A stretch of DNA of 64,000 nt from Bacilli bacterium (GTDB lineage Bacteria; Bacillota_I; Bacilli_A; RF39; UBA660). The position numbers and the translations under genes are program-made. The notes beneath the pieces were generated by a model. It was not told the origin of the DNA, searched no databases, and worked only from the letters and a program-made list of their open reading frames with translations. This document shows, piece by piece, positions 956 through 32,356 of this stretch (position 1 is the first letter of the stretch; each line of letters opens with the position of its first letter). The stretch covers positions 23,592 through 87,591 of the forward strand of contig JAFUBO010000004.1 of assembly GCA_017460175.1 (NCBI GenBank), in the 5' to 3' direction.

Positions 956-1637
956 TTAATTTATCTTTATAAGATACAAGAAATGCTTTTGAGTTTTTAT
1001 TAGATTTAATTATGCTAATTTTATTATCTACTATTTTTAAAGCTGTACAATTTTCTAATGAATATACTTCTTCATTATGTTTACTCAAATATTCTTCTAA
1101 TTCTTTTGTTTTAGTTGGATTAGAATGATAATGTGGGCAAAAATTTAGATTAACAAAATTTAGTCCTTTAATAAATTCGTGTTTATTACTTTCACCTCTT
1201 ACTATCAAAGAATCGGAAAAACCTTTATTTGATAGTAATATAGCTCCTGCTGACATACCAGCAAGTACAGTACCTTTATTGTATGCATTTAAAAGTAATT
1301 TATCTATTTTATATTCTTTAATGTCATTTATTAATTTTACTGTATCTCCTCCGCATATATATATAATATCTGCATTTTCTATTTTATTTACTACAATATC
1401 TGGATTATTAATAATATTTTTCTTTTTTAAATATACTGTCTCACAATTTAAATCTTTATAAATTTTTTTCATAGTATCATAATATGAATCAGAATGTGAT
1501 GATGCTAATCCTATAAAAAGAAAGTTTGGTTTTTCTTTTTCGGTCATTTTAACTATTTCTTCGTCTATTTCTTTAGTTTCATAAGAAGTTGTTCCACGTC
1601 CTGTATCACCACCACCGATTAACATTAATTTTTTCAT
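939..1637 (-). CDS. Peptidase S51 family protein (peptidase E / cyanophycinase-like, class I glutamine amidotransferase-like fold)
   Basis: The N-terminus 'MKKLMLIGGGDTGRG' and an internal 'IYICGGDT' match Ser-His-Glu dipeptidase E-type proteins, and the ~230 aa length fits. The stop overlaps the start of the downstream gene. Confidence 0.55.
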   Translation of the reverse strand: MKKLMLIGGGDTGRGTTSYETKEIDEEIVKMTEKEKPNFLFIGLASSHSDSYYDTMKKIYKDLNCETVYLKKKNIINNPDIVVNKIENADIIYICGGDTVKLINDIKEYKIDKLLLNAYNKGTVLAGMSAGAILLSNKGFSDSLIVRGESNKHEFIKGLNFVNLNFCPHYHSNPTKTKELEEYLSKHNEEVYSLENCTALKIVDNKISIIKSNKNSKAFLVSYKDKLIEKEI

Positions 1638-2194
1638 AATAATACCTCCTCAATTTCTTTCCAATTGTTTACTCTTATTATATTTTTATCATATTTTTTA
1701 TTGATGTTATGCCATCTATTAAATAATATTTTGATGTCTGCACCTTCTAAATTAGTTATTTTATCATCAATTTTAATATCAAAATTTAATAAATTCTTAT
1801 TAGTTGTAAAAATGTATTTAGATGGGTTAATAAATGGTAACATTTCTTTTAAATAGTAATATTTATATCCTAAATTTTTACCACTTATATCAATAACATC
1901 AGTCCATAGATATGATGTTACTATATATAAATCATATTTATCATTTAATTTTTTTAATACTTCATAGCAATCTTTAAATAAAGGTGCTCCTTTATATAAA
2001 TCTTTATTTTCTACATATTTCCAAAATTCTTCTTTTTTTGATTTAACTAAATCTTGAACATATTCATAATTAGTAATTTTAGTCATATCTATTTTTATAT
2101 TCATAAATTCTTCTATATATTTATTAAAATTACCATTTGTAATTACATCATCCATATCTATCATTAATGTTTTCATATTTTTCACTTCTATCAC
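1634..2194 (-). CDS. 5'(3')-deoxyribonucleotidase-like HAD-family phosphatase
   Basis: The N-terminal 'MKTLMIDMDDVITNG' is a HAD motif I (DxDxV/T). The ~186 aa size and overall pattern are typical of the NT5C-like family. Confidence 0.55.
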   Translation of the reverse strand: MIEVKNMKTLMIDMDDVITNGNFNKYIEEFMNIKIDMTKITNYEYVQDLVKSKKEEFWKYVENKDLYKGAPLFKDCYEVLKKLNDKYDLYIVTSYLWTDVIDISGKNLGYKYYYLKEMLPFINPSKYIFTTNKNLLNFDIKIDDKITNLEGADIKILFNRWHNINKKYDKNIIRVNNWKEIEEVLL

Positions 2195-3298
2195 TTATTT
2201 ATCATTTTTAAAGATATTATTAATATAATCTTTAAATTCTTCTTTCTTTGTGTTTTTGAAACAATCTAGTATTAAATTTATAAAATCAATTAATATTTCT
2301 TTTGTATTATTATTTATTTCTTTAGTTTCTTTAATTAATGTAAATATTTTTTTGTTTTTACTTGTTAATTCTAAGATGCTGGTAACTTCTGCTTTTTTTA
2401 ATACATCATTTAAATTTGTTACAAAATTATATTTATCTTCTTTATTATATTTTTCTAACCATTCTTTTAATCTTATATCTAAATTTGTAGACATTGGTGA
2501 TAAATCTGATTGTATTAGTTTTTTATCTTCTATCATCCAAAAATTAATTGCATGTGATAATATACCTTTATTTGATGATTTAACTACATAATCATTTGAA
2601 TGGTTTAAAAATAATCCTATATATGTTGTATCTGGAATTATATGCACATATTTATTATTTATTTTTTTATACTTTTTAGAATTAAATTCTTTATCTAATA
2701 AACCAGGTCCATCCATATTATAGATTAATTTAATTTTTCTTCTTACAAAGATATTAGCATTCATTCCTGCAACTAGAGCAAGATTACCTCCTTTTGAATG
2801 ACCACCTACTATTAGTTCTTTTGAATTAAATGTAAAGTTTTTATTTAAGTATCTAATGGCCGTTTTATGCGATATCGTTGGAAATTTATAACTTATAATA
2901 AAATCTTCTATCCATCCACTAAATAATTGATCAGTTCCTTCGAATGATACATAAACTTTATTAGGCATATACTCTATGGAAATGGCTCCAAATTGAATTT
3001 TTTCATTTCCTATGTATTCATAATTATATACTATACAATTTTTGTATCTTTTCGTATCAGCTATATATTTTAATAATTTATTTGCTTCTTTAACAGCATA
3101 TATATTTTTATCTTTAGTATTATGTATTTTTTGATAACTCTCAGCTATGTCTCTTATGCTTTTCTTACTTGATTTATCTAGTATGTTTTCAAAATTTGCA
3201 TATGAAAGAAAACTAAATAATACTGAATCTATTTCATTAAATTGTTCTTCTTCAAATGTTTTATTACCATATTTATCAATGTAATTGTATATATCCAT
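2195..3298 (-). CDS. Alpha/beta-hydrolase, lipase class-3-like (DUF2974/Mbeg1-like)
   Basis: A nucleophile-elbow motif 'GGHSKGGNLALVAG' (GxSxG) is present. Confidence 0.5.
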   Translation of the reverse strand: MDIYNYIDKYGNKTFEEEQFNEIDSVLFSFLSYANFENILDKSSKKSIRDIAESYQKIHNTKDKNIYAVKEANKLLKYIADTKRYKNCIVYNYEYIGNEKIQFGAISIEYMPNKVYVSFEGTDQLFSGWIEDFIISYKFPTISHKTAIRYLNKNFTFNSKELIVGGHSKGGNLALVAGMNANIFVRRKIKLIYNMDGPGLLDKEFNSKKYKKINNKYVHIIPDTTYIGLFLNHSNDYVVKSSNKGILSHAINFWMIEDKKLIQSDLSPMSTNLDIRLKEWLEKYNKEDKYNFVTNLNDVLKKAEVTSILELTSKNKKIFTLIKETKEINNNTKEILIDFINLILDCFKNTKKEEFKDYINNIFKNDK

Positions 3299-3329
3299 AA
3301 AATCACCTTCTAAAATATTATATCATATA

Positions 3330-3356
3330 AAAACAAAAAGGACTTAGTCCTTTTAT
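3330..3356 (-). terminator. Rho-independent terminator downstream of trxB (hairpin GGAC-tta-GTCC flanked by A/T runs; could act bidirectionally)
   Basis: The sequence aaaaaGGACttaGTCCtttt is read directly. It overlaps the trxB stop codon. Confidence 0.5.
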
Positions 3357-4261
3357 TGATTTATGTATTTAACAGCTTCTGTTGCAGCAAGTGCACCATC
3401 AGATGTAGCTGTTACCAATTGTCGTAATGATTTTTCTCTAATATCCCCTGCAACAAATATACCTGGTATGTTGGTATGACATAATTTATCACTTACGATA
3501 TAACCATATTCATCTATTTCTATAATATCTTTGAATATGTCATTCATTGGAATTTTTCCTATCGCAATAAATAATGCATCAGTAGATATTGTGTCTATTT
3601 TATTGTTTGATAAAATATCAATACTATCTAATTTTTCATTACCATTTAATTTGTTTATTGTGGCGTTTAATACTAATTTAATATTACTAATACTATTTAA
3701 TTTATCAATTAAAATTTGATCAGCTCTAAATTTATCTCTTCTATGAATTAAATATACTGTATTACATATATTAGATAAATATATTGCTTCTTCTAATGCG
3801 GTATTTCCCCCACCTACTACACAAACATTTTTATTTTTGTAGAATGACCCGTCACAAGTAGCACAATATGATATACCTTTTCCAATGAATTTATCTTCAT
3901 TTTCAATGTTTAATTTACGATTATCAGTTCCTGTTGCAATAATAATGGCTTTTGCTTTGTATATATTGTTTTTTGTATTTACTTTTTTATAATCTTTTAA
4001 ATTTTCAATTGAAATTACTTTTTCTTCTATTATTTCTACACCTAATTCGGTAATTTGATTATATAGTTTAGTTGCAAAATCGTATCCTGATATATGTTCT
4101 TGAGTTGGATAATTTTCTATATCCACTGTATTTATTATTTGTCCACCATAATTTAATGCTTCTAAAACCAATACTTTTTTATTTGCACGTTTTGCATATA
4201 GTGCTGCTGTCATACCAGCTGGTCCTGCACCTATTATTATAATATCATACATATTATTCAC
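3353..4261 (-). CDS. trxB: Thioredoxin-disulfide reductase
   Basis: An FAD-binding N-terminus 'IIIGAGPAGMTAALYA' and the redox-active 'CATCDG' are present. A second 'GGGNTA' NADPH motif is also there, and the 302 aa length fits. Confidence 0.9.
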   Translation of the reverse strand: MNNMYDIIIIGAGPAGMTAALYAKRANKKVLVLEALNYGGQIINTVDIENYPTQEHISGYDFATKLYNQITELGVEIIEEKVISIENLKDYKKVNTKNNIYKAKAIIIATGTDNRKLNIENEDKFIGKGISYCATCDGSFYKNKNVCVVGGGNTALEEAIYLSNICNTVYLIHRRDKFRADQILIDKLNSISNIKLVLNATINKLNGNEKLDSIDILSNNKIDTISTDALFIAIGKIPMNDIFKDIIEIDEYGYIVSDKLCHTNIPGIFVAGDIREKSLRQLVTATSDGALAATEAVKYINQ

Positions 4262-28665: not shown

Positions 28666-29841
28666 ATGTTAGATGATTTTTTAGAAGATCTAGGTTATAG
28701 TAATGATCAAATTAAAATTGTTCATAATATATATCCCAATAAAATATATTCTGAATCTTCTTTGTTATTTAATTTTAAAAATTTATATTATTATCTAAAT
28801 AAAAATAACATTAGTAATGAAGATTTTATTAATATAACAATGACAATACCTAGTATTATTTCTCTTAGTTTAGAGGATATTAATAATAAAATTATTGAAT
28901 TAAATGATTTGGGTTTTAATAAAATTAATTCATTTAAATTAATATCAAAATATCCATATATCATTGAAATTAATAAATCAACATTAAAAAATAGTATCAA
29001 TAGTTTTAAAAGTATAGGTTTTAAGGAAAATGATATTATTACAGTTATTGTTAATAATCCTAGTTTACTTCAAGGTGATTTTTCTAATTATAAGTGTGTT
29101 ATAGATTATTTAATTAATTATGGATATTCTAATGATAATATTATGAGATTGATTAGAAAAATTCCTGAATTATTAAATTTGAATATTATTGATATTAAAA
29201 ATAAATACAAAAAGATTGAAGATTTTGGATTTGATCAAAATGTTGTCATTCAAATAACTAATATAATTCCTAGTATTTTGTTATCTGATAAAAATTTAAT
29301 TACTGATTATTTTGATTCTTTATTATCATTTGGATATACTAATATGGATATTATTGAGATAATTAAAAAAATTCCTATTATATTTAAAGATAGATATAGA
29401 GAACATTTAAATGATAGAATTAATAACTTTTCTAATTTAGGGATTAATAGTAAGGATATTATTTTGATGACTTCTAATAATCCATATTTATTTTTATATT
29501 CTGAAGACAATATTATTACTATATATAAGAATTTATTAAAATTAAAATATTCTAATGATGATATTAATAAAATATGTGTTAGTTTTCCTTTAATATTTGG
29601 ATATAATTGGAATTATACTCTTGATAAAATTATGTATTATAAAAAAATTGATTTAGATAAGTATTTAATTAGTAATAGTAAAATATTATTATTACCTATT
29701 GAACTAGTTCATTCAAGATACCTATATATTTCAAAATATAAAAATATAGATAATAATTATAAAGATTTATTTATTGATGATTGTAGTTTTTATAAATTAT
29801 ATAAAATTAAGAGAGATAGTTTGCTGAAAGGAGAATTTTAA
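28666..29841 (+). CDS. mTERF-like repeat protein (about 11 tandem ~30-aa helical repeats with L-G-[FY]-[ST]...I..I....P.[IL][LF] periodicity)
   Basis: The repeats 'LGYSNDQIKIVHNIYP', 'LGFNKINSFKLISKYPYII', 'IGFKENDIITVIVNNPSLL', 'YGYSNDNIMRLIRKIPELL', 'FGFDQNVVIQITNIIPSIL', 'FGYTNMDIIEIIKKIPIIF', 'LGINSKDIILMTSNNPYLF' and 'LKYSNDDINKICVSFPLIF' are read directly. A good RBS (GGTGGTGA) precedes the ATG. Confidence 0.5.
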   Translation: MLDDFLEDLGYSNDQIKIVHNIYPNKIYSESSLLFNFKNLYYYLNKNNISNEDFINITMTIPSIISLSLEDINNKIIELNDLGFNKINSFKLISKYPYIIEINKSTLKNSINSFKSIGFKENDIITVIVNNPSLLQGDFSNYKCVIDYLINYGYSNDNIMRLIRKIPELLNLNIIDIKNKYKKIEDFGFDQNVVIQITNIIPSILLSDKNLITDYFDSLLSFGYTNMDIIEIIKKIPIIFKDRYREHLNDRINNFSNLGINSKDIILMTSNNPYLFLYSEDNIITIYKNLLKLKYSNDDINKICVSFPLIFGYNWNYTLDKIMYYKKIDLDKYLISNSKILLLPIELVHSRYLYISKYKNIDNNYKDLFIDDCSFYKLYKIKRDSLLKGEF

Positions 29842-30224
29842 TGGATTTCTTAATTAGAAATGGATTTACTATTGAAGAAATTAAAATTATGATGGATACA
29901 AATGATTCTATTGAATATGTTAATGAAAAAAATATTAATTTATTAGTAAGTGTATTAAAGGAAAATAATTGTACTGATATAGATATTAAAAATATATTTA
30001 TTTGTAATCCCTTTTCTATTACTAATGATATTAATATTATTTGTAATTTAATAAATAAATTAAAGGAATTAAAAATAGATAATTTGAATTTATTATTTAC
30101 TAGTAATCCTTATATATTAAATATGAGTGACAAAGATTTAGAAAAATTATATAATAAGAAAAAAAGAGAAGGACTTAATAATAATGAAATAATTGATTTT
30201 ATTAATTATAATATTATTTTTTAG
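29841..30224 (+). CDS. Short mTERF-like repeat protein (3 repeats), translationally coupled (TAATG) to the preceding gene
   Basis: The same repeat type is present: 'NGFTIEEIKIMMDTN', 'NNCTDIDIKNIFICNPFSI' and 'LKIDNLNLLFTSNPYIL'. The reading frame differs from the upstream gene. Confidence 0.45.
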   Translation: MDFLIRNGFTIEEIKIMMDTNDSIEYVNEKNINLLVSVLKENNCTDIDIKNIFICNPFSITNDINIICNLINKLKELKIDNLNLLFTSNPYILNMSDKDLEKLYNKKKREGLNNNEIIDFINYNIIF

Positions 30225-30234
30225 GGGTGAATAT

Positions 30235-31146
30235 ATGAATGTTGTTATAAAAGTTAATGATGAAATTAAAGAAAAAATGATTGAATATTACAAAGATAAA
30301 AAACGTGATAAAGTAATTCCTTATGTAGTATTTCAAGCACAAGATGAAGATACAGTTATAACTATGTATGAATCAGGTAAAGTAATGTTTCAAGGAACTA
30401 GTGCTGATGTAGATGCTGCTATGTGGGGTGTTGCATTAGAAAATACAAATGAAAAGAAGGAAGAAAAAAAGAAAGAAAATTTGAAATATTATAATGCACC
30501 TAGTGTTGGTAGTGATGAAGTTGGTACAGGAGATTATTATGGCCCTATTGTAGTTACTGCTTGTTTTGTAGATAAAAATAATTTAGAAGAACTTAAAAAA
30601 TTAGGAGTTGGAGATTCTAAAAAAATTGATGACTCTAAGATATTAAAAATAGCTCCGCAGATTGCTAAATTGGTTAAATATAAATCTGTTATATTAACTA
30701 ATAAAGAATATAATGAAAAGTATAATAAAGATATCAATATGAATAAAATTAAGGCTATTCTTCATAATAAAGTTTTATATCAATTAATTAATGAAGAGAA
30801 ACCTGTATACGAATATATTATTGTTGATGAATTTGCAAGAGAAGCTAGATATTATGAATATTTAAATGGACAAAATAATATTCAAAAAGGAATAACGTTT
30901 TTAACAAAGGCAGAAGATATATCACCTGCTGTTGGATGTGCTTCTATTATAAGTAGATATATATTTTTAAAAGAATTTGATAAATTATGTGATTCTATTC
31001 ATATGCCTTTACCTAAGGGTGCCGGACGTGATGTAGATGAAATTGGTGAAGAAGTGGTTGAAAAATATGGAGAAGATAAATTAAAAGAAATAGCTAAAGT
31101 TAATTTTAAAAATACAGATAGAATATTACATACTATGATTTATTAA
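30235..31146 (+). CDS. rnhC: Ribonuclease HIII
   Basis: I chose the start at MNVVIKV (30235), with RBS AGGGGTG 8 nt upstream; the ORF track starts earlier. An N-terminal DUF3378-like domain is followed by an RNase HII/HIII catalytic core: 'DEVGTGDYYGP', '...VDEFA...', 'KAED..'. Confidence 0.85.
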   Translation: MNVVIKVNDEIKEKMIEYYKDKKRDKVIPYVVFQAQDEDTVITMYESGKVMFQGTSADVDAAMWGVALENTNEKKEEKKKENLKYYNAPSVGSDEVGTGDYYGPIVVTACFVDKNNLEELKKLGVGDSKKIDDSKILKIAPQIAKLVKYKSVILTNKEYNEKYNKDINMNKIKAILHNKVLYQLINEEKPVYEYIIVDEFAREARYYEYLNGQNNIQKGITFLTKAEDISPAVGCASIISRYIFLKEFDKLCDSIHMPLPKGAGRDVDEIGEEVVEKYGEDKLKEIAKVNFKNTDRILHTMIY

Positions 31147-31149
31147 AAA

Positions 31150-31180
31150 GAAAAAAGAGTTTTAATAACTCTTTTTTTTA
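31150..31180. terminator. Bidirectional terminator between convergent rnhC and thyA-like genes (AGAGTT-ttaat-AACTCT flanked by A/T runs)
   Basis: The hairpin is read directly. Confidence 0.55.
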
Positions 31181-32356
31181 TATACCTAATGGAAATTTTA
31201 ATTGTGGATTTTTTATTTTTATTAATTCTTTTGGATAATCATCTACATATATATCATCCGGTTTAACATCATTAAAACTTATTACTTCTTCTTTTAATTC
31301 GATACTACATTTTGCATTTATTGGTTCTCTATTTAGCATTTCAATTGTTTGGTCTAAATGTCTATCATATATTTGAACGTTAACTGGTTTCCAAGTAAAA
31401 ATACCTGGAATATATCCTAAATCTCTTGCAACCATTTTATGTTCTGCAACATATTGAACTTGATTAATGCATGCAGCTGTATCAAAGTCACTTGAACGTT
31501 GAATCATAGTCATATCTAAATAGTCTAATCCATCCCATCCATGCCTTACATTCCAAACAGTTAGAAAAGCACAAGGTTTTAATCCATGAGGTCTTTGAAA
31601 ATCATCTGTTTGCCATAAACAAGTTATATTCCTTCTACCATCAGGATTCTTTCTGATTTGTTCTATTACTTCAGTATAAATCATATTTCTTGGACCAGTA
31701 GTACCACCATAACATGAGCCTATTATTGGATGAGATTTTTCATTTAAAATGTAGTTTCCATTTTCATCACGAAGTGCCCATTCTTCCCACCAATTATTTA
31801 TTTTATGATCTTTATCCCAAGTATTCTTGCCTATTAGTTCATCAAATTCTACTAAGTCATTACTTTGTTTTTGATAAATCCAAAGTATTTCAGCAACTGA
31901 TGTTTTTATAGCTATAGGACGAAGTGTAATCATTGGTGTTTCTCCTTTAGATAAATCATATATACACTCAATTCCTTGATTAACGCTTAGTGTATGAGCT
32001 GGAACGTGTACTTCTACTCCATGTTCTTTTTCAATTACTGTTTCATTATCTCCTACTTTGATTTCTTCATTTTCTTTTGTAGTAATAATTCTTTTTAAAT
32101 CATCATATGTAGCATCAGAATAAAAATCATGATATTTTGGTCTAGGATTATGATCTAAGCATCCTTCTTGAAGAATCTTATCCATAATTAATTTGTGATA
32201 CATATCTCCTTTAGTACCTATTTTATGACCTTCTTCATCTTGTAAATATCCATCTTTTATTTTTAAATCGTTATATGTAGTTTTTATTAATTTTAATGGG
32301 CTTTCCCCTAATTTTAGTTTTTCTATATTTATTCTGTTCAAATTAAATTCTTTCAT
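31178..32356 (-). CDS. Thymidylate-synthase-family protein, unusually long (392 aa) with insertions
   Basis: The C-terminal half aligns by eye to ThyA. The features are 'RNMIYTEVIEQIRKNPDGRRN' (RR phosphate-binding pair), 'KPCAF' (catalytic Cys) and 'MIQRSSDFDTAACINQVQYV'. Also seen are 'PMITLRPIAIKTSVAEILWIYQ' and a terminal 'IYDRHLDQ'. The N-terminus has ~60 extra residues and several insertions. Confidence 0.6.
   Translation of the reverse strand: MKEFNLNRINIEKLKLGESPLKLIKTTYNDLKIKDGYLQDEEGHKIGTKGDMYHKLIMDKILQEGCLDHNPRPKYHDFYSDATYDDLKRIITTKENEEIKVGDNETVIEKEHGVEVHVPAHTLSVNQGIECIYDLSKGETPMITLRPIAIKTSVAEILWIYQKQSNDLVEFDELIGKNTWDKDHKINNWWEEWALRDENGNYILNEKSHPIIGSCYGGTTGPRNMIYTEVIEQIRKNPDGRRNITCLWQTDDFQRPHGLKPCAFLTVWNVRHGWDGLDYLDMTMIQRSSDFDTAACINQVQYVAEHKMVARDLGYIPGIFTWKPVNVQIYDRHLDQTIEMLNREPINAKCSIELKEEVISFNDVKPDDIYVDDYPKELIKIKNPQLKFPLGI

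Follow-up and report, generated by a model that had tools for sequence, protein, structure and literature searches.

Why would a bacterium carry two genes for proteins of the mTERF (mitochondrial transcription termination factor) type directly ahead of rnhC, the gene of RNase HIII? The question is raised by a 64,000-nucleotide (nt) stretch of DNA from a Bacilli bacterium (GenBank assembly GCA_017460175.1, contig JAFUBO010000004.1, positions 23,592 to 87,591 of the forward strand), called the window here, in which a gene for a 391-amino acid (aa) protein, a gene for a 127-aa protein and rnhC follow each other on one strand. The two proteins are named mTERF-L (L) and mTERF-S (S), and coordinates given without a locus handle are window positions. 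An earlier examination of the letters and open reading frames (ORFs) alone, referred to here as the sequence-only reading, had taken L and S for mTERF-like repeat proteins co-transcribed with RNase HIII. The gene identities and the operon structure, taken jointly, are nearly certain from the analysis given below. The function is a more tentative matter: L and S may form a heterodimeric solenoid which binds to sites in DNA or hybrids and shares a pathway with RNase HIII, an overall reading to which we give rather less than an even chance.

Identity and conservation of the two mTERF genes

L was matched by the Pfam hidden Markov model of the mTERF family, PF02536, with 121.6 bits (cut-off 23.1; E=4.4e-35), and S reached 22.5 bits, 0.6 under the cut-off. 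A precomputed PF02536 match was found in most of the 113 homologue clusters of S, and the S profile aligned with the L profile in hhalign at 96.6% probability (E=7e-10), onto L residues 44-161. AlphaFold2 models of both proteins were wholly helical, with a confidence (pLDDT) of 89.5 for L, modelled with nine homologues, and 91.9 for S, and showed a repeating pattern of two long helices and one short helix. When the models were compared with the PDB by Foldseek, MTERF1, MTERF3, MTERF4 and the Tetrahymena mitoribosomal protein mS93 came on top for L (probability 1.0, E ~1e-7), and the top 17 matches of S were all MTERF1/3/4, with TM scores of 0.64-0.83 normalised to S. On the basis of its alignment with the L profile, the PF02536 matches of its orthologues and its modelled fold, S is considered a true three-repeat mTERF protein. 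When a profile of 36 bacterial homologues was used, human MTERF1 was matched over L residues 95-380, C-terminal tail included, with E=3.5e-23. The search with PF02536 and the fold comparison with MTERF1, both proposed by the sequence-only reading, thus agree with its assignment of the two proteins to the mTERF fold.

The repeats themselves differ from their first description. Prolines at residues 24, 62, 97, 132, 167, 202, 237, 273, 308 and 344 divide L into ten repeats. The helical nature of the repeats was borne out, and their period is a regular 35 aa and not the ~30 aa first proposed. The spacing motif proposed along with it (beginning L-G-[FY]) has zero matches in L when taken literally, and only a relaxed version finds four, against 0.0005 expected from shuffles. 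The repeat proline returns every 35-38 residues in all ten repeats of L and in two of the three repeats of S, within the pattern G[FY]-x12-P-x-[ILF][ILF]. The features which define the family, namely the profile match, the three-helix solenoid fold and the motif of proline and spaced hydrophobic residues, are all present. Its usual setting, nuclear-encoded and organelle-targeted, is not, as the genes form part of a bacterial operon and are flanked by cvpA and rnhC; this is a matter of the family's distribution and leaves its fold untouched.

The same locus was looked for in related genomes. A homologue look-up with L gave eight metagenome loci (L001-L008), and a scan of one genome per GTDB species with an alignment of S gave 35 metagenome-assembled genomes (MAGs), making 43 loci in all; the same scan with L alone gave no matches. 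All 35 MAGs were obtained from the rumen, the gut or related material, and their depositors assigned them to uncultured Erysipelotrichaceae, Bacilli, Bacillales or Mollicutes. By tblastn, L, S and rnhC were found in the same order and on the same strand in 42 of the 43 loci (34 of the 35 MAGs), so the check proposed earlier places the pair ahead of rnhC almost throughout, and cvpA lies divergently upstream of L in 38 of the 43. Three further loci with the same order were reached through two RnhC homologues from digester and bioreactor metagenomes, which had been picked regardless of any mTERF gene nearby. An exhaustive profile search added about 25 more full-length orthologue clusters, all metagenomic, and a human-gut version of S was found on 449 contigs. 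The genes past rnhC differ among the loci and the triad is unbroken. Judged from these comparisons, L, S and rnhC make up a predicted operon of three genes that is conserved in a very AT-rich lineage of uncultured Bacilli from gut, rumen and digester. Two loci carry shortened reading frames: S aligns only from residue 43 in L041 (458-757), and RnhC ends after ~180 aa in L038 (6393-6935). Either could be an assembly error or local pseudogenisation.

Seen in a single sequence, the TAATG by which L is joined to S with a 1-nt overlap, in different reading frames, could hint at one mTERF gene split by a frameshift or a sequencing error. The GC content of L and S, which at 16-18% is the minimum of an extremely AT-rich neighbourhood, might likewise be taken as a sign of an artefact, be it decay or contamination of the MAG with eukaryotic DNA. 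In 39 of 39 loci, however, L and S are separate ORFs, the relative frame being 0, 1 or 2, and S always starts with an ATG of its own, served by a separate ribosome-binding site (RBS), GGAG or GGTGA, within the last codons of L. Because of this, the split is regarded as ancestral and maintained. The homologues of S are nearly all 125-132 aa long, and no L-S fusion was found among 159 homologues. S matches generic mTERF repeats, with the N-terminal part of L as its best match; its alignment falls on internal repeats of L, and it does not correspond to a lost C-terminal end. The locus, on a 776-kb contig, is flanked by bacterial genes. A frameshifted single-gene ancestor, raised as a possibility by the sequence-only reading, is refuted by these data, and an artefact or a pseudogene is excluded, with a negligible chance left to it.

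In six closer pairs the ratio of non-synonymous to synonymous substitution rates lay well under 1, a result which also weighs against decay of L and S: RnhC had 0.03-0.08, L had 0.10-0.31 and S had 0.08-0.28. The median pairwise identity was 83% for RnhC, 68% for ThyA, 51% for CvpA, 46% for S and 39% for L. L and S are accordingly functional genes under purifying selection, evolving much faster than RnhC. None of the other four proteins compared in the clade is as conserved as RnhC, and such conservation is unusual for this enzyme.

The product of rnhC scored 226.9 bits against the equivalog model TIGR00716 (cut-off 161.2) and is composed of the domains PF11858 (DUF3378) and PF01351 (RNase_HII). 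In an alignment with Geobacillus RNase HIII (PDB 2D0A), the catalytic D/E/D/E residues were found to be kept in the segments GSDEVGTGDY, IIVDEF and TKAED. By its sequence it is an orthodox RNase HIII with intact active-site residues, and it is 100% identical to an RNase HIII listed by NCBI for 'Bacilli bacterium', a rumen-type MAG in which proteins identical to L and S are also found. The longest mechanical ORF begins at TTG 30193. The ATG at 30235, 10 nt past the stop codon of S, is taken as the start instead because more than 100 homologue clusters have a length of 303 aa.

Layout and transcription signals of the operon

The features of the locus are collected in Table 1. The coordinates, lengths and frames given for L and S by the sequence-only reading were borne out by the ORF check, and its layout, with the TAATG junction, the 10-nt gap before rnhC and the divergent cvpA, was correct.

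Table 1. Features of the L-S-rnhC locus and its immediate neighbours (window positions)
Feature	Position	Strand	Evidence and remarks
cvpA, Colicin V production protein family	27877..28584	-	Pfam PF02674, E=4.7e-15; divergent neighbour of L
Conserved element ATTATAAACTATTT	28613..28626	.	TATAAT on the - strand (28613-28618), likely -10 box of cvpA, putative promoter role; near-invariant in 38 aligned regions
Extended -10 promoter TATGCTATAAT of L-S-rnhC	28635..28645	+	Followed by RBS GGTGGTGA (28654-28661)
mTERF-L, 391 aa, ten 35-aa mTERF repeats and C-terminal tail	28666..29841	+	PF02536; NCBI MBQ9019130.1
mTERF-S, 127 aa, three mTERF repeats, acidic, isoelectric point (pI) 4.7	29841..30224	+	PF02536 22.5 bits, hhalign, AlphaFold2/Foldseek; NCBI MBQ9019131.1
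rnhC, RNase HIII, 303 aa	30235..31146	+	TIGR00716, DUF3378 and RNase_HII, 2D0A alignment; RBS AGGGGTGA in the 10-nt gap region
A/T-rich hairpin and T-run, likely bidirectional intrinsic terminator	31149..31179	.	Between convergent rnhC and thyA
thyA	31178-32356	-	Convergent with rnhC

An extended -10 element (TATGCTATAAT; TGCTATAAT; TGnTATAAT) was observed 24-34 nt before the start codon of L in 38 of 38 loci. The divergent promoter region of cvpA and L, consisting of ATTATAAACTATTT, a spacer of 8-10 nt and TATGCTATAAT, is near-invariant though L is only 30-50% identical between species. In 39 loci the distance from L to S ranges from -17 to +20 nt, mostly -1 to +4, and the gap between S and rnhC is 1-19 nt, mostly 9-11, with an RBS present. 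The hairpin behind rnhC has a folding energy of -12.7 kcal/mol in RNAfold (z=-3.6 against shuffles). No other clear hairpin with a T-run was found in 28600-31260, and none lies inside the operon. A candidate internal promoter of rnhC (GTGACA-17-TATAAT at 30127-30155, 11 of 12 matches) was rejected; it is found only in the closest relatives of the window, and its TATAAT stems from conserved Tyr-Asn codons. One promoter, coupled junctions, kept gene order and the absence of an internal terminator are what the signals of a single operon would be expected to show. Co-transcription of L and S with rnhC, as proposed by the sequence-only reading, is therefore strongly implied by the invariant promoter, the uninterrupted unit and the hairpin which follows rnhC.

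The same arrangement may be a product of hitch-hiking. L and S would then have been inserted behind the promoter and ahead of rnhC in the ancestor of the clade and would do a nucleic-acid job of their own, such as regulation or termination at DNA sites, or rRNA or ribosome assembly in the manner of MTERF3/4, and the transcript would be shared for historical reasons only. This is the principal rival of a common pathway with RNase HIII, and we consider it rather unlikely. The general synteny of the region, with cvpA and thyA kept nearby, fits it, as does the situation in B. subtilis, in which rnhC has its own promoter, PrnhC, next to the separate zapA-yshB-polX-mutSB-yshE unit (PMC7261158). Yet tight junctions with an embedded RBS are kept in about 40 species in spite of the divergence of L, no conserved independent rnhC promoter was found, and the downstream genes vary while the triad never breaks.

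The operon also stands out by its orientation. The window contains 49 ORFs with a length of 150 aa or more, and 47 of them are situated on the - strand; the + strand holds L and rnhC only, plus the 127-aa S, and L-S-rnhC is therefore its sole unit. In related loci the flanking genes are likewise on the strand opposite to the operon. If the dominant gene orientation follows replication, the operon is presumably head-on to it.

ThyA of the window has 392 aa with the thymidylate synthase Pfam domain confined to residues 122-376, leaving an N-terminal extension of ~120 aa which is also found in the relatives (390-409 aa). A DHFR gene adjoins thyA in most related loci, and none is found beside thyA of the window. 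A 209-aa membrane and coiled-coil protein with a weak SLATT_1 match is encoded beside cvpA (27178-27807, - strand), and a 1592-aa ORF is situated at 14062-18840 (- strand), upstream of the cvpA region.

A possible function for the pair

The first step of the proposed mechanism is that L and S would form a heterodimeric helical-repeat module. This is suggested by the recurrence of large and small mTERF pairs and by the finding that co-variation is stronger between L and S than between either of them and their neighbours (Spearman correlation of pairwise identities 0.53, against 0.17-0.39 for the other pairs). With modest confidence, the two are probably partners. Such pairs were found in four unrelated genomic contexts. 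In L044 (2283-7498; JGI Ga0318466_10000328), from a spore-forming member of Bacillota, four mTERF genes lie inside an exonuclease VII operon in the order nusB, xseA, mTERF of 375 aa, mTERF of 301 aa, an S-like gene of 131 aa, xseB and mTERF of 270 aa. The junctions of this cluster are overlapping or short, and the same was observed in L045 and L046; a metagenome scan for more xseA-embedded mTERF clusters found none. L047 (982-3398) contains an overlapping mTERF pair of 404 aa and 134 aa between SSB and HTH_3 genes, which looks like a replication or mobile-element module. In L040 (6001-8973) the pair is reversed: an S-like 131-aa gene is followed by a gene for a 331-aa protein in which a 35-aa unit (LGYTKEE..K.T...P.LYS.S...IK.KI.DLI) is repeated in tandem almost unchanged. 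This reversed pair lies upstream of a RelA/SpoT-type gene. The same locus also holds a serine-recombinase-like ORF (1471-3144) and a collagen-like ORF of GPTG repeats (3153-3692). The pair architecture is recurrent, and in some cases it is accompanied by a gene other than that of a nuclease.

The second step is that the module would bind nucleic acid through the repeat face used by MTERF1. To our knowledge, every characterised member of the mTERF family binds DNA or RNA. It is this homology, together with the DNA binding reported for the bacterial pTERF1 and pTERF2 (PMC11417379), which speaks for binding by L and S. The residue after the repeat proline corresponds to the position of the MTERF1 DNA contacts R202, F243 and R350, as placed from the numbering of the mutant chains. 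At this position L has the invariant residues Tyr98 and Tyr274, and S has Phe58 and Tyr91. A binding face like that of MTERF1 is suggested because these invariant aromatic residues occupy the position of the DNA contacts in some of the repeats.

As a third step, the L-S module would work in the same pathway as RNase HIII. It may mark or hold sites of DNA or RNA:DNA hybrid, such as transcription ends and sites of transcription-replication conflict, at which RNase HIII would then remove the RNA strand; a direct contact of the enzyme with L-S is optional. What suggests a role in R-loops, in replication-transcription conflict or in termination is the operon linkage together with the behaviour of the family elsewhere. 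Functional coupling of L and S to RNase HIII appears only just short of an even chance, and the site-marking mechanism in its specific form is unlikely. A stronger version, in which L and S are dedicated specificity subunits of an RNase HIII 'holoenzyme', the heterodimer picking DNA or hybrid sites at transcription ends and head-on conflicts and delivering the nuclease to them, is improbable. If true, the mitochondrial MTERF/RNase H1 system for handling conflicts would have a counterpart in free-living bacteria, from which it may have evolved.

Several observations weigh against the proposed pathway. The proteins are not basic: the median pI of L is 6.3, with a net charge between -11 and +17 across orthologues, and that of S is 4.5 (4.2-5.4). 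The base-flipping residues of MTERF1, R162, F243 and Y288, align with a variable Lys (K165 of L), an Ile (I238) and a non-aromatic position, and in the profile alignment L lacks the features of the base-flipping subtype. L and S diverge fast (39% and 46% median identity, against 83% for RnhC) and have no special co-variation with RnhC. As the whole neighbourhood with cvpA and thyA is syntenic in the clade, the adjacency of the three genes weighs less than the number of loci suggests. Other bacterial mTERF genes are situated beside relA, choline kinase or SSB/HTH genes, and a search for fusions of mTERF homologues with enzyme domains gave none.

Part of this evidence favours hitch-hiking, to which the lack of special co-variation between L/S and RnhC and the related mTERF genes beside relA, SSB/HTH_3 and metabolic genes would be natural. 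The ribosome-associated MTERF3/4 and the mitoribosomal mS93 among the top fold matches are also in line with an independent task of the pair. Against it, the embedding of mTERF genes between xseA and xseB in L044 represents a second, independent case of such genes in a nuclease operon.

The acidity of S could also be read in another way. S, alone or with L, might be a protein-level regulator which attaches to RNase HIII, possibly by imitating nucleic acid, and restrains, stabilises or localises it, with nucleic-acid recognition being secondary. The consistently acidic S (pI 4.2-5.4) beside a near-neutral L agrees with this, S is better conserved than L and is translated right before RnhC, and an extra interaction surface would fit the conservation of RnhC (83% median identity against 68% for ThyA). 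A precedent is MTERF4, which binds NSUN4 through its C-terminal part and is among the fold matches (4FP9, 4FZV). But the invariant aromatic residues are situated at the repeat position which contacts DNA in MTERF1, S and RnhC show no co-variation (Spearman 0.22), and characterised members of the family bind DNA or RNA, as known for the family at large and from PMC11417379. Such a regulator is improbable in our view, and a nucleic-acid-binding L-S module in one pathway with RNase HIII is preferred to it.

A phage, plasmid or defence-system origin was also considered and rejected. PADLOC gave chance-level matches only and the NCBIfam search was negative. When 50,697 phage and 72,556 plasmid records were searched by tblastn, nothing matched L, and the search of IMG/VR was likewise negative. 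Ten long homologues (649-872 aa) were found to be pure mTERF arrays, and the other Pfam matches had no supporting domain stretches.

Comparison with known systems

The mTERF family had been called overwhelmingly eukaryotic in the sequence-only reading. Reviews and a 2026 survey agree, holding that prokaryotes have no mTERF proteins (PMC12977773), but prokaryotic members were described in 2024 as pTERF1 and pTERF2, bacterial mTERF-like tandem-repeat proteins which bind specific double-stranded DNA at nanomolar affinity (PMC11417379, Nucleic Acids Res 2024). That report is the closest precedent and the sole exception found to the absence of the family from bacteria, and it comes without physiological context; it gives no gene context, and RNase H or operons are nowhere mentioned in it. 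A literature search found no paper in which mTERF is paired with RNase HIII. By description only, L and S resemble the pTERFs in their origin from Bacillota MAGs of the ruminant gut, in their 35-aa three-helix tandem repeats, in their mTERF motifs and in their MBQ-series accessions. pTERF1 (TR_35_C32_2, MBQ3414883.1) is described as having no conserved proline and hydrophobic pattern and only 9-18% identity to eukaryotic mTERFs (PMC11417379), whereas each of the ten repeats of L has its proline and L reaches 121 bits on PF02536. The 331-aa paralogue of L040 looks more like the published description of pTERF than L does.

New in the present locus are bacterial mTERF proteins with clear homology to MTERF1, their vertical conservation over dozens of gut and rumen Bacilli species under purifying selection, and the placing of their genes in one putative operon with a well-understood enzyme, RNase HIII. 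A concrete and testable hypothesis is thereby offered for the role of an mTERF solenoid outside organelles. The pair could serve as a simple system for mTERF-nucleic-acid recognition, and bears on the origin of the eukaryotic family. L and S, labelled 'hypothetical protein' by NCBI (locus tags IJ097_02310 and IJ097_02315) and in public MAGs, could now be named.

Human MTERF1 (PDB 3MVA/3N6S) shares with L the three-helix repeat solenoid, an alignment covering MTERF1 residues ~92-391 and the proline, which is found in each repeat of L. The bacterial proteins differ from it by their encoding in a bacterial chromosome, the split into ten and three repeats, the strict 35-aa period and the operon with RNase HIII. 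They are also near neutral (L) or acidic (S) rather than basic, and the flipping residues are not kept. The complex of MTERF4 and NSUN4 (PDB 4FP9, 4FZV, 7O9K) is an instance of an mTERF solenoid partnering a nucleic-acid enzyme, and MTERF4 is among the best fold matches of both L and S. NSUN4 is an rRNA methyltransferase in a solved complex, whereas a partnership with RNase HIII is suggested by the structure of the operon alone.

In Drosophila mitochondria the dosage of RNase H1 changes fork pausing at mTTF binding sites (PMC6433063). The system of mTTF and mTerf5 with RNase H1 is similar in that an MTERF roadblock is tied to an RNase H in replication-transcription conflicts. It belongs to a eukaryotic organelle, however, RNase H1 is an enzyme of another class than RNase HIII, and the link is genetic and physiological and not an operon. 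RnhC itself has the TBP-like N-terminal domain and the RNase HII-type catalytic domain of the Bacillus and Geobacillus enzymes (PDB 2D0A). Unlike rnhC of B. subtilis with its own promoter, rnhC of the window is third behind the two mTERF genes, and L-S can plausibly be viewed as an insertion into the rnhC-cvpA neighbourhood of Bacillus.

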